A stretch of DNA of 62,341 nt, filler included, from Circinaria calcarea (taxonomy: Eukaryota): NCBI GenBank assembly GCA_051942165.1. It is 12 parts of 12 records of this genome, joined end to end, with 100 filler letters (N's around TTAATTAATTAA, not from the genome) between each part and the next. Parts side by side here need not be neighbours in the genome. Positions count along the whole stretch, not along the records: positions 57,249 to 62,341 come from JAVECS010002049.1; 11 more parts are not named here. The stretch is one strand, 5' to 3'. Below, one piece after another: positions 57,249 through 62,341 of this stretch. The first letter of the stretch is position 1. Every line of letters starts with the position of its first letter. The position numbers and the translations under genes were made by a program. The notes below the pieces were generated by a model. That model saw nothing but the letters and a program-made list of their open reading frames with translations. It searched no databases and had not been told where the DNA came from.

Positions 57249-57523
57249 TATTTTATTTTTTATTTTTATTTTTAGTTTTTTTATTTATTTTTGAAATTTT
57301 ATTATATTAATTAAAAAGCCGAAAAAAAAATATAAGAATTCCCAAAAAATGAAATATCGCGGTAAAAGTGGAAAAAAAGAAAAGAAAAATATAGCTGCTC
57401 GTGTGAGCCCTAGGAAAAAATTCGTAAAGAAGAAAATTTCATTATAGGAACGGTAAGAGGGGAAAAATAAAAAATAACTGTGAGAAATGAAAAATAAGAG
57501 GGTTATGGACGGGGTTGGAAATT

Positions 57524-57553
57524 GGGGTTAGGGTCCGGGTTAGGGTTAGGGTT
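57524..57553 (+). repeat. Short interstitial telomere-like TTAGGG tract
   Basis: GGGGTTAGGGTCCGGGTTAGGGTTAGGGTT near an AT-rich contig end. Confidence 0.45.
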
Positions 57554-58036
57554 TTGGGAGAAGAAAGGATACGAGAGGATAGGATAGGAGGAAAAGGAGG
57601 AAAAGGAGGGAGGGTGTGTGGCTATTAACGATAATGACTTATTTGCTGGGGGCGTCGATGGGGGAAATATTTGAATGAATAGTTAGTTGAAAGTGGGGAG
57701 AGGTTATTATTCTAGTGGGTAGATTGGTTCTTGGCTTTATTGAGTAATATAATATATGATAACTATTCTAGGGTCTAAGGTCTATTCTATATGCTGGGTT
57801 GGGTATAAGGTAGCTATCATTATTCATCATTCACTATAGTACCATAATATCCCATTTCTAATCCCTAGCAGGGTATCATTCATGTTGCGCCACCAGTTCG
57901 CCGGAAGAAGCCGACTCCAACCCTCCTCCCACTCCCGACTCTCGGATTTCCGAGAGTACCAAAACCAAAACCCGACTCCGCTTCCGAGCACGCCTGATCA
58001 AGTCCACAGTTCCTCGCAAAGGCTTGGTTCGAATTC

Positions 58037-59039
58037 TCACTCCCTCTTCGCCTGCTCGATCCTCTCAAACGTCAGCGGAACAGGGAATCCAACACGAGTC
58101 GCCAGCGCGATGATGAGATCCGCCATGCCCATGGGGAGGACATGTTTCAGCAGCATCGGCGCGGAGTCCGGGACTATAAAATTCTGCTTCGCAGCAATTA
58201 TACCGTCTAATTCCTCCACTAACAAAGCGCAGTTCTCGAAAACCACTCTGGCTTCGTCGATGATGTCTTCTCTTTCCTCAAGAGAGAGCTGGGTTTCGAG
58301 ACTCTGGAGCTGAGATTTGAAGTGATCTTTGATATCTTCGCCGTTGTGGGGGCCGGGGAAGTGCCAGAATGAGAGGGCTTGTTCGGGAGTGTGGTCGGGG
58401 GTAGAAGAGGTGGTCTTGGGGGTGGAGAGTGTCCAGGACGAATCTCGGGCGGAGGTGAGCTGGGACCTGATCCAGCGGCCACCGTTGAAGAGGGCCATGT
58501 ACAGGACCCATGCGTAGGCGATTATAACGTGAGGTTTCTGGGCCGTCGTGAGGTTGATGTGAGCGGTGAAGGCGCTGAGATGGGGGAAGGTTTGCGCATT
58601 GGTTAATTGGTCATCCACTTCGTGGGGAGAAACGTTTAATAGGGTTGCTAGGTCTTCCTTCAATCTCGTTGTTCGTAGGAGTGGTGGGATGAAGAGTTGT
58701 TCTAGGATTGGTGAGATGCGCTCGGGCGGTCTTTCTAGTGCTCTAATCCATGCCGACTCAAAGGCAATATATATATTGGCAAAGTGGAGGAGACCGGTAG
58801 TATAGAAGATAGGGTCATTTGTATTTGGTGGAAGAGCAAGAGGAAGCCGGTTCAGGACAAGGCGGTTCAAGTGGGTGTGGACTTGTCTGGTAGAGTTGTG
58901 TAAGCAATAGCTCTCCTATTCCCGTCATCGTTGATAGTAAGATATACCTAGTCGCAGCATTTATCTCCTTGGAAAATGCTCCGTTAAGGTTCCCACCCCT
59001 TTGGCGGTTTGGTGGCGCATCCTGTACTGGTACGAGCAT
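58037..59039 (-). CDS. Heme oxygenase-like protein (Hmx1-like), 2 exons
   Basis: EINAATR^QVHTHLNRL (proximal His helix); LLRTTRLKEDL; AYAWVLYMALFNGGRWIR; IIDEARVVFE. Confidence 0.85.
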
Positions 59040-59482
59040 TGCGACTGGAATGAAATAGAGGTATTAAGGGAGTCTTAGGTAACTGTATAGAAGATGAAGA
59101 TGCCATGGTGAGTACCCAAATAAAATACAAAGCACTCAGAGCGTTGAATCCGGCGTCTTGGTCATTTATTGTGTTGAAGGCAGCAAGCTCGGTGAGCGAA
59201 TGATGGAATCCGGACATTGAATCACATGTCTGTCAAGTCACGAAGCTCCCTCATGATTTTCAAACTCCAACAAACACACAACTGCTACCACATGGCATTT
59301 GTTGTTCTTCAACTTGAAACTGTGTTACATTACAGCTGCTTCAGCTATCCTTAAAGATATTCCACTGCTCCATATGGTTAGGACTATAGAATTCAGTTGA
59401 TCTTGTCATGACATATGCGCTCCATGCCTCGGGGGTCATCCTCCATATACGAAATAACCAAAGATACAAAAGTCACTTGAGC

Positions 59483-61021
59483 TCATACCAGCACTTGCGC
59501 TTTTGAGATAGTACGACCACTGTCATGACCAGCTCTCAAGTCATCTTCCCACTTCACCACGGCCGGGAAAACCACTATCTGAATAGGCCGACCTTGCAGA
59601 TTCTCTCCTTTATTGTCTTGTAACGCATCTTCCATGCTTGATGCATCAAAGGTTTTTATGCCTGGTCTTTCCATGATAATCTTGAACAAGGCTCGCTGCT
59701 TCCCGAGATCAAGAGCCAGATTTGCGGCAGAATCGACGACTTGGCGAAGTTGTTTGAGTCTTGCTTCCGAGGGACCTAATCCAGCCAGGTTGGAAGTCAT
59801 ACTGTCAATCTTTTTGCTGATTTCCTCCACCGAGGACTTTCGCTCTTTTCGGTAATCCGAAGTTTTCTCGAGTAATGTCATTGTCTGCGCTCTCCATTCA
59901 TTCGCTTCCGCAGTTGATGCTGTTAAAATACGTTAGAAGGCACTTCATTGTAAAGCTCATGACTATTTCTGGATACTTACCTGCTGTGGTAATTGCTTGC
60001 TTGAGCTCCGAGAACGCAGGAATACCCAAAAGCTCTTCGGTCGTAAATGCTTGTACGATAACCTCAGCGACCAAGGATCTGATCACGAGGTACTTTGTAC
60101 GAGGTTCCCTGAGTAGAGCGGCATGATTCGGCTGGCTTCTCTGCAAAATGGCTAATACCTCCTGAACCGGCGAGTTACCTGGACGCATAGCCTTGAAGTT
60201 GCTTATGACCCAATCATTGATGCTCTTCGAGAGCCTCAGAAATCGCTCATTCACTTGTTTATCGTCGAGGCCTGATACGCCGGCCCCACGGCTTCGTTGG
60301 AAAAGGGCAGCCTGGCTATCTCGTAGCTGGGCATCTCGCTCATGAAGTTGGGTTTCGAGGCTATTGATTTGACTTTCAAGACTTGTTGCTGGGGAATTGT
60401 GCGCGGCCTTTAGTTCGTATGTTGGAGCATACTGCCCTCGCCGATCTTTTGAACCTGAACTCACCCTGTTAAATGGTCTTACCTATGCTGGAATTAACTG
60501 AACTCACGTCGTTTTCGCAAAAGAAGAAAGGCCAAAATCCCAAGAGTTATAGCTAACAGTGCTCCCAGTACAGCAACACCTGCTATAAGACCAGTGTTTG
60601 AGGTCTTCGGTGCGACAACTGGGGCAGTTGAGGGTTCAGATGCCGAGGATGACGCAGTAGAGGACGGTGCGTTGGAACTTTGCGTTTGAGCAATTGAAGC
60701 GGGGCCGTTGGAGGAAGAAATACTAGAAGTTGCAGATGCACTAGAAGACGTGGGTATAGGAGGCGCCGCGATGGCACTCTGGGAGGTGGCACCAATCGAT
60801 GCAGATGGTGTAGCGTTGGTTGTTTGTGCCGATATGGGCAAGGTTGACACACCAGGCGAGCCGTTGATATTGGGTGATATAATCACTGCTACTAACAGAG
60901 AACCGTTTGCCTCTGTGCTTGTGATAGTTGATCCTGAAGGGATTGGAAGTGTTGTGGCTATACCATTGAGCCCGGTGCTTACATACGCTCCGAAAGGGAC
61001 TGATACATTGGGTGCCGCCAT
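59483..61021 (-). CDS. Single-pass membrane protein: Ser/Thr-rich N-terminal region, TM helix, coiled coil and GrpE-like C-terminal domain; 3 exons
   Basis: ORF 60494..61021 (S/T-rich, TGLIAGVAVLGALLAITLGILAFLLL-RKRR), ORF 59898..60464 (coiled coil) and ORF 59483..59881 joined by GT-AG introns; ANEWRAQTMTLL; C-terminus FDASSMEDA...IQIVVFPAVVK...TISKAQVLV*. Confidence 0.72.
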
Positions 61022-61850
61022 TTCTCGGTCTTGACGATTATTAGTCTGTTAATATACAACCGACGCCACCTTTTCACCGAAGTCGAAAAGCGTCAGAAGT
61101 ACAATTCAACGAGAGGGAGGTTGTAAGGGAAATCGCACGAGAAGGCTGGCTCATATACCAACATTGCTGCGGCGCTGCACCGAGGTTCCGTACGGAGTCC
61201 TCCCCACAATCACATAGTATACACCCCCACGAGAGCACAGCACCAATGAGGGTGGACCAGAGATCCTTAGCGTCGCACGAGGCTGAGAATCCTCCCATGC
61301 AGCAGGGGTCCGGCACGGGGCAGTGTACAGAAAGCGTGACGCTAGTTCGGAGGCTAGAGCGTTAGAGCCCGCCGCCTGCTATTTCAAGCTTCATCGGGTA
61401 CGAGTAAGACGCCGGCGGCTTAGTGTTTCAGCAGCCTCGTCTGCGATCCATGCGGGTCGAGTCACAAGTTGTCTCGAAAGAAGGCAAAGTCACGCCTACT
61501 TGTTCTTTTCGGTGCCGGATGAACGCCGAAAAGCTCGGACGAATCAGATAAGTTGAATTTTTGATTTGAGATTGATGATTTCAGAGATGATGAGTTCCAC
61601 TGGGGGGTGGCACAGGTGGTAATTGAATTGGGGTCCGAAAGTACCGAGTACGGAGTAGCCTTGCCCTTGCGGTGCCAGAAGCCCCTGTTTCTCGCCATGT
61701 TGCTGCGCGTATCATAATGGTGTGGAAGTTGAAGATTGACCGTAGATCGATATGAACTTGGCCTTCCCATTGATCTCATTTGTTCCACATTCGCCATCAG
61801 CTCGAGTATTGCATCTCTGATGATGTTTGGCGCGCCTTTTACCCTGCGAA

Positions 61851-62341
61851 ATGGCTAATCTGCACAGAATCGTGGTCGGGCTGGATTTTGGCACAACCTA
61901 CTCGGCTGCGGCCTGGGCGGAAACCTCCAATCCGACGCAGATTGAAATCATCAAGAATTGGCCAACGTCCGGACAGCTCGTCGGCGCCCAAGCTCCCACT
62001 GAGATTGCCTATCCAGAAGGCGATACGGGCAATTTCTCATGGGGTTATGACATCAGCCCGAGGGCTCGCAAGGTACGCCGGAAGATTGCCGCGCAAAACA
62101 GACATGTATTGATCGATTGCAATCGCAGGTCAAATGGTTCAAACTCGGGTTGGAGACGGACAATGAGGTCCTCACTCTCCCTGCCGGCTTGACAGCAGCG
62201 GATGTGGTGCGGGACTACCTCTCGGCCATCTACAAACATGTCATGATGACCCTTTACCGACGCTTCGATCGAGGGGTAATGCAAATGACCAAGGTCGACT
62301 TTGTCCTCACCGTCCCTGCCATCTGGTCCGATGCGGCAAAA
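61851..62341 (+). CDS. Atypical Hsp70 (HSPA12-like actin-fold ATPase), 5' fragment
   Basis: IVVGLDFGTTYS phosphate-1 motif, IKNWP, PTEIAY, WGY, intron 62073-62128, VKWFKLGL, DYLSAIYKH, FVLTVPAIWSDAAK. Confidence 0.9.

Follow-up and report, generated by a model that had tools for sequence, protein, structure and literature searches.

The divergent gene pair and its surroundings

The window, that is, the whole stretch of DNA that was analysed (62,341 nucleotides, filler included, from the genome of Circinaria calcarea, a lichen-forming member of the Lecanoromycetes), ends with two genes that diverge from a common spacer (Table 1). The window is a chain of ~5.1-kb contigs and not one molecule, because paired 44-N runs around TTAATTAATTAA (N44-TTAATTAATTAA-N44 linkers) recur about every 5.2 kb along it. 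Sequence to the left of position 57249 belongs to a different contig, joined via an artificial linker, and the original placement of the two genes within one contig is true for the last contig of the window only, which holds the pair entirely.

Table 1. Features of the divergent gene pair (positions along the window)
Feature	Position	Strand	Content
Contig bearing the gene pair	57249..62341	.	5,093 bp; N runs and TTAATTAATTAA linker at left
Partner gene, exon 3 including stop	59483..59919	-	three predicted helices and C-terminal beta subdomain
Partner gene, intron 2	59920..59980	-	61 nt, GTAAGT..ACAG, phase 1
Partner gene, exon 2	59981..60454	-	juxtamembrane helix and first half of conserved domain
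Partner gene, intron 1	60455..60507	-	53 nt, GTGAGT..CAG, phase 1; junction as in P0001
Partner gene, exon 1	60508..61021	-	N-terminal segment rich in Ser/Thr (aa 1-143), TM helix, start of RKRR
Divergent spacer	61022..61850	.	829 bp between ATGs 61021 (minus) and 61851 (plus)
ATPase gene, exon 1	61851..62072	+	74 aa; DFGTTYS, NWP
ATPase gene, intron	62073..62128	+	56 nt, GTACGC..CAG; orthologs uninterrupted across junction
ATPase gene, exon 2	62129..62341	+	71 aa; KWFKL, LTVPAIW; truncated by contig end

The left gene, denoted the partner gene below, consists of three exons on the minus strand and encodes a product of 474 aa. Its splicing was modelled on canonical splice sites and homolog continuity: in P0002, a homolog, an intron at the site matching intron 2 is read through, and the junctions in the NCBI protein P0001 (hypothetical protein Q9187_006945, C. 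calcarea), between RKRR and SKD and between ITTA and AST, are identical to those of our model. The N-terminal region (143 aa, 36% Ser+Thr, four N-x-S/T sites) is followed by a TM helix (aa 144-168, nt 60518-60592), the RKRR motif, a helical stretch and a conserved domain of ~240 aa that extends from aa 234 (nt 60269) to the C-terminal end and is matched by the HMM of the domain at 9.6e-50. Positive charges typically lie on the cytosolic side of a TM helix, and by this positive-inside rule the conserved domain and the tail as a whole would be cytosolic. The protein terminates in a beta subdomain (nt 59486-59689) with the motifs FD..MED, VVFPAVVK and KAQVLV, the tail reading ..GIKTFDASSMEDA..PIQIVVFPAVVKW..TISKAQVLV up to the stop codon. 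In the window's partner protein, no signal peptide or N-terminal hydrophobic segment is seen, and the ectodomain encoded by exon 1 shows neither a Pfam match nor a recognisable ligand-binding domain.

The annotated protein P0001 is longer (780 aa) and includes a splice from a GTATGA donor, located across the final codon and stop of the partner gene, into a downstream heme-oxygenase-like gene (PF01126, E 3.6e-15). We consider this fusion an annotation artefact, given the C-terminus shared by the homologs and the implied intron of ~460 nt, compared to 53-61 nt for the neighbouring introns. The stop at 59483-59485 appears to be real because the same ..KAxVLV strand ends all homologs checked (17/17) and the single-ORF metagenomic homologs stop 3-8 residues past the end of the domain.

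The right gene encodes an Hsp70-like ATPase of which the window holds the first 145 aa only (orthologs, 553-566 aa); its splice junction, between PRARK and VKWFKL, agrees with the orthologs. The motifs DFGTTYS, NWP, KWFKL and LTVPAIW are all present; the original prediction had assigned them to the non-canonical HSPA12-like Hsp70 clade. "HSPA12-like" is a provisional label that derives from these motifs, and the protein is described here as atypical Hsp70-like. Two further motifs, CDAGGGTVD and LVGGFGESE, are invariant among the orthologs. The phosphate-1, phosphate-2 and adenosine motifs that characterize the nucleotide-binding domain (NBD) of the Hsp70/actin fold are found as DFGTTYS in the window and, for the others, in the orthologs; the nucleotide-binding motifs of the ATPase are intact. 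The Hsp70 profile PF00012 matches the orthologs at 45-47 bits (cut-off 20.6) over profile positions ~133-377 of 599; for the 73-aa piece from the window by itself, the score is 9.8 bits. HscA/DnaK models, similarly, match only the NBD. An Hsp70-like NBD, a weak PF00012 match and an apparently non-canonical C-terminal part are shared with HSPA12A/HSPA12B; a difference is that the consulted parts of a 2026 review (PMC13580251), which gives the function of HspA12 as unknown and the family as expanded in bivalves, mention no HSPA12 partner gene.

The spacer between the two genes is presumed to be a shared promoter. It contains no heat-shock element between 61022 and 61850, and two STRE-like pentamers, which corresponds to the background rate. 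The gene structures thus bear out most of what the original prediction had read from the sequence, namely two genes diverging from ATGs 61021 and 61851, the Ser/Thr-rich region, single TM helix and RKRR motif of the left gene, its tail motifs, and the four motifs of the right gene.

Conservation and co-divergence of the pair

Many lichen-forming fungi and their relatives possess close orthologs of the ATPase (64-84% identity over the 70 aa tested). The ATPase and partner genes are consecutive in all seven further species with tags or accessions for both (Table 2), on contigs of equal size; these species represent Lecanoromycetes, Candelariomycetes, Coniocybomycetes and two unplaced leotiomyceta lineages. 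Chaenotheca gracillima, left out of this count, encodes both genes, again on contigs of equal size, and also outside it are X. trunciseda, X. bjoerkii, Trapelia, Agyrium and Dactylellina, in which a partner was identified and which entered the analysis without an ATPase tag.

Table 2. Consecutive ATPase and partner genes in seven further species
Species	ATPase	Partner
Xylographa soralifera	MCJ1376934	MCJ1376935
X. pallens	MMC27_000684	MMC27_000683
Candelina mexicana	M1836_007522	M1836_007523
Pycnora praestabilis	M1827_002542	M1827_002541
Sclerophora amabilis	M1837_007009	M1837_007010
Trizodia sp.	M1829_005491	M1829_005492
Vezdaea aestivalis	M1814_001460	M1814_001459

A one-directional metagenome survey, seeded with the ATPase alignment only, yielded 80 loci, nearly all of which encode paralogs (27-46% identical to the ATPase). 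At these loci, the partner was sought upstream and on the opposite strand with a domain-only HMM. Upstream sequence of 3 kb or more is available for 32 loci; a partner gene lies divergently upstream in 17 of them and was not found in 15; merging of near-identical loci (L007/8/9/11, L056/58, L013/14) leaves 13 of 27 paired. Two loci with shorter flanks, L041 and L051, also carry a divergent partner gene, and an iterated HMM produced weak matches (E 5e-4 to 0.02), in the same place and orientation, at L053 and at four of the 15 loci first scored as unpaired, with no partner match of any kind in the remaining 11. In L003, L035 and L044, a partner gene is located 4-8 kb downstream of the unpaired ATPase, its own upstream region being cut at the end of the locus. 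Throughout the 631 kb of loci, every partner gene with readable upstream DNA adjoins an Hsp70-like gene. The nine partners that are encoded in a single ORF start ~585-1100 nt from the ATPase start, a range that includes the spacer of the window.

In a quick IQ-TREE tree, in which several long branches were flagged, paired loci fall into at least six clades; the orthologous clade of the window is paired throughout (6/6), and the unpaired loci form a few subclades. The identity matrices of ATPase and partner are correlated (r=0.776 for 22 pairs, a value inflated by near-duplicates), and none of 2000 permutations reached this r. Within the orthologous clade, divergence is much more rapid in the partner (33-49% identity) than in the ATPase (63-81%). 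The two genes are a conserved, divergently transcribed and co-diverging pair, matching the linkage and co-phylogeny that the original prediction had proposed to look for at fungal HSPA12-like loci.

Such an arrangement could in principle reflect nothing but a bidirectional promoter or inherited synteny, with no contact between the products, and head-to-head pairs are indeed reported to be common and often conserved in eukaryotes (PMC1487180, PMC3024869). However, the pairing reaches across fungal classes and outlasts several rounds of duplication, and the adjacency to an Hsp70-like gene extends to all partner genes with readable upstream sequence. Inherited synteny by itself would not be expected to yield a pairing that survives duplications into at least six paralogous clades, and we regard this as the least probable of the explanations considered here.

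Beyond fungi, the partner HMM (A7) matched one of 401 Pseudomonadota genomes, at a chance-level E of 0.002, and the ATPase HMM (A4) none of the 401 at E<=1e-25; at E<=1e-8, A4 gave 34-44-bit matches in 30 of 251 genomes, all to proteins of ordinary Hsp70 size. Both fungal models are narrow and are the wrong probe for bacterial relatives. A search of the CC-licensed literature returned no description of this pairing.

The partner domain and its weak resemblance to GrpE

No family in Pfam, NCBIfam or PADLOC covers the partner domain. Screening 1.84 billion representatives with a profile retrieved 373 proteins (E<=1e-3), a number that falls to 143 with a threshold of E<=1e-10; judged by this similarity, the family marked by the domain is large, belongs to the ascomycetes and comprises 373 representative clusters. 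It is C-terminal in every member, and the N-termini preceding it are of two main kinds, either Ser/Thr-rich with one TM helix, as in the window, or a soluble coiled coil, as in most relatives including Neurospora crassa NCU01491; Lys-rich giants of 1,384 and 2,209 aa also belong to the family. Most members have no TM segment, and a signal peptide is evident in the homolog P0087 and not seen in most others. A fused Hsp70 domain was found in none of the 29 longer members scanned.

The AlphaFold2 model of the homolog P0062 (237 aa, 58% identical to the domain of the window; pLDDT 93.6, pTM 0.91) comprises eight helices (residues 3-169) and a subsequent beta subdomain (174-236), and the helices are predicted to pack against each other within the molecule. 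For exon 3 of the window (144 aa), the model (pLDDT 90.6) shows three helices and six short strands.

GrpE is the nucleotide-exchange factor of Hsp70/DnaK, and its beta-head follows a long coiled coil. The DnaK-GrpE and mitochondrial Hsp70-Mge1/GrpEL1 systems (PF00012 + PF01025; 1DKG, 4ANI, 9BLS) combine an Hsp70-fold ATPase with a genetically coupled partner, and such coupling to an Hsp70-family gene is what the 7/7 species and 17/32 metagenomic loci display. In its predicted succession of helices and a small C-terminal beta domain, and in a collinear order of motifs (helix, beta, FD..(M/H)E., hairpin, ..A.V.V), the partner resembles GrpE. Judged by eye, the domain of the partner also follows a helix or coiled coil. 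In contrast to the dimeric four-helix bundle of GrpE, however, the predicted helices of the partner form an intramolecular eight-helix bundle; furthermore, the partner is anchored by a TM helix or has long coiled coils, and the ATPase of the window, unlike DnaK, is not a canonical Hsp70. A J-protein was not seen on the 5-kb contig.

The original prediction had suggested, by eye, that the tail is GrpE-like. When the model of the window tail was compared with 350,542 PDB chains using Foldseek, GrpE occupied ranks 1, 2, 3, 5, 12 and 22 (E. coli, Geobacillus, human GrpEL1 and Thermus; 147-151 columns, 13-18% identity), with E values of 0.1-2.2 (0.1-0.3 for the best three) and a TM score of ~0.3, and was the only family seen with an alignment that reaches the end of the beta part. 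Comparison of the family with a GrpE profile by hhalign (32 sequences, proteobacterial only) gave a probability of 1.5-2.9% and P of 0.016-0.035 over 16-23 columns on the FDP..H.A motif; the single best alignment places f.v..p..FD..tMEDv on hGV.rI..gqpFDPnlHQAv, and a collinear extension appears at low stringency. With PF01025, no match reached the gathering score of 25.8 bits, and there was no GrpE match in any exon of the window (E<=1) or, for exon 3, at E<=10; weak matches were obtained in 5 of 63 family members, the best in any homolog being P0066 (12.3 bits, E 0.14), in the collinear region. An HMM of the GrpE C-terminal part scored family members at no higher than 4.9 bits, the Foldseek search with the full-domain model returned nothing at E<=0.001, with GrpE absent among the matches listed, and the PDB profile search with alignment A1 contained no GrpE at E<=10. 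The corresponding search with A5 did retrieve the GrpE chain 4ani_A (E 0.073); this match was rejected, as it sits in the coiled coil and the other matches are mostly coiled-coil proteins. The proposed likeness is suggestive, given the top Foldseek ranks and the alignment of FD..MED with FDP..H.A, but every score lies below significance and the window has no Pfam match to GrpE.

These results bear on an alternative in which the module is real but the fold of the partner domain is novel and has no relation to GrpE; instead of exchanging nucleotides, the domain would act as an anchor, an adaptor or a regulated client of the ATPase, tying it to a membrane or a coiled-coil scaffold. The conserved synteny and the co-divergence fit this possibility equally well; no method yielded a significant match to GrpE, and in the VIA comparison the Z values of GrpE are inside the range of the helical noise (5.0-8.2), the best matches being generic helical bundles. 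Variable N-termini, comprising TM, coiled-coil and Lys-rich giant forms, are likewise expected for targeting modules. In addition, the nearest named ESM Atlas clusters are not GrpE: for two distant members, which share 24% identity, they are PF24994 (GIL1_IRKI_C) and PF16026 (MIEAP), with scores of 0.78-0.83 that shuffled proteins often reach. This language-model likeness to MIEAP and to the C-terminal domains of plant GIL1/IRKI is a lead only, and HMMs of PF16026 and PF24994 match no partner members. Against an unrelated fold, the PDB family that ranks first with the window tail is GrpE, with an alignment that extends to the end of the beta part, and the best profile-profile alignment falls, collinearly, on the GrpE signature. 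We view an unrelated fold as a serious but rather unlikely alternative. A GrpE-like origin of the tail is plausible, with the balance roughly even, because the leading Foldseek ranks concur with a hypothesis formed beforehand and with the Hsp70 gene next door as independent context.

Possible roles of the pair

The account that we consider moderately likely is that of a two-gene module in which the C-terminal domain of the partner serves as a dedicated cofactor of its own ATPase, most readily as a divergent GrpE-like exchange factor. The fungal module consists of an atypical Hsp70-superfamily ATPase and a divergently encoded partner, separated by a spacer of ~0.6-1.1 kb. The constant C-terminal domain of the partner would bind the NBD of the cognate ATPase and regulate it or, most probably, promote its nucleotide exchange, as a GrpE-like factor that has diverged very far. 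Where the ATPase works would depend on the variable N-terminus; for the gene of C. calcarea, the place would be a membrane, and the tail would be cytosolic.

The original interpretation went further and saw in the pair a surface sensor for cell-wall, stress or non-self signals, in which the state of the ectodomain is transmitted by a GrpE-like tail that switches on the ATPase. The architecture of the window's protein fits this scheme, with its Ser/Thr-rich region and N-x-S/T sites, a TM helix flanked C-terminally by positive charges, and a presumably cytosolic domain, as do the evident signal peptide of P0087 and the much faster evolution of the partner relative to the ATPase. On the other hand, no signal peptide is seen in the window's protein or in the majority of homologs, and the ectodomain contains no recognisable ligand-binding domain. 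In the Mid2/Wsc sensors of fungal cell-wall stress, a single TM helix joins a Ser/Thr-rich N-terminal region to a cytosolic tail. The partner of the window has only this general architecture in common with them; no WSC domain or sequence relation was found, and its cytosolic tail is large, predicted to be folded and linked to an Hsp70. Given that most members of the partner family have no TM segment, surface sensing is not the general mechanism of the module, and we regard the sensor scheme as very unlikely. The original interpretation is partly supported: the conserved, co-diverging pair is retained, the GrpE scores are insignificant and surface sensing is not general to the family.

Returning to the dedicated cofactor, the partner is most likely a cofactor or anchor devoted to an orphan branch of Hsp70, and possibly a GrpE-like exchange factor. 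In eukaryotes, GrpE-type factors are not known outside organelles; if the tail is GrpE-derived, it would represent a cytosolic, membrane-anchored GrpE relative in eukaryotes. A broader scenario, which we consider improbable, is that HSPA12-type Hsp70 ATPases across fungi each keep a fast-evolving, GrpE-derived partner, in a family that might even extend to MIEAP and GIL1/IRKI; the variable N-terminus would address the exchange factor/ATPase machine to different cellular sites, and the membrane form would be a surface-coupled switch. The partner probably serves this orphan chaperone branch as its own cofactor, and its coupling to the ATPase through many duplications offers a concrete handle on the function of HspA12-type Hsp70s.

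Make-up of the window and the NCBI gene model

The window consists of approximately 12 contigs of about 5.1 kb each, chained by N44-TTAATTAATTAA-N44 linkers, with 22 runs of N across positions 5119-57248; there is no physical linkage between the gene pair on the last contig and the genes to the left of 57249. The start of this contig (57249-57800) is AT-rich and of low complexity, with Lys/Phe/Pro-rich repeats in open frames of several reading frames and no evident gene. In the NCBI model (P0001), the partner gene is joined to the heme-oxygenase-like gene, the intervening stop codon being removed by an intron of ~460 nt. In all 17 homologs checked (17/17), the unfused C-terminus is the end of the protein.

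Coordinates of the neighbouring, partner-family and Hsp70-like genes
Feature	Location	Strand	Evidence or position
Heme-oxygenase-like gene	window 58037-59039	-	PF01126, E 3.6e-15; downstream of partner gene
Partner-family gene	L003 9435-10106	-	4-8 kb downstream of seed Hsp70-like gene, locus end
Partner-family gene	L035 7513-9111	-	4-8 kb downstream of seed Hsp70-like gene, locus end
Partner-family gene	L044 20094-21647	-	4-8 kb downstream of seed Hsp70-like gene, locus end
Adjacent Hsp70-like open frames	G144:C11 81065-83433		fungal ATPase model
Adjacent Hsp70-like open frames	G156:C1 1330125-1332361		fungal ATPase model
Adjacent Hsp70-like open frames	G076:C26 26181-28492		fungal ATPase model

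Architectures and look-alikes of the partner family

An AKAP7 2'5' RNA ligase-like domain (PF10469) is found at the N-terminus of two soluble family members, P0126 (E 1e-18) and P0174 (E 8e-25); this reflects either a genuine fusion or the merging of neighbouring genes. The giants P0173 (1384 aa; named 'involucrin repeat protein' in UniRef) and P0201 (2209 aa) contain many KKKGKKGKK-type repeats, with the partner domain at the end. The distant members P0062 and P0156 share their nearest named ESM Atlas clusters, which are those of GIL1_IRKI_C from plants (PF24994) and MIEAP (PF16026), with scores of 0.78-0.83; we treat this likeness as a lead only. MIEAP is commonest in molluscs, and a review records an expansion of HSPA12 genes in bivalve molluscs (PMC13580251).

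Other arrangements of Hsp70-like and partner genes

Probing of bacterial genomes with the fungal ATPase model revealed three proteobacterial genomes in which an Hsp70-like open frame of 644-677 aa lies next to a second one of 949-1479 aa. The metagenomic loci L003, L035 and L044 belong to one ATPase subclade in which the seed (the matched Hsp70-like gene) lacks an upstream partner, and a partner-family gene instead sits downstream, at the locus end. This layout suggests clusters containing a second, unseen ATPase gene.
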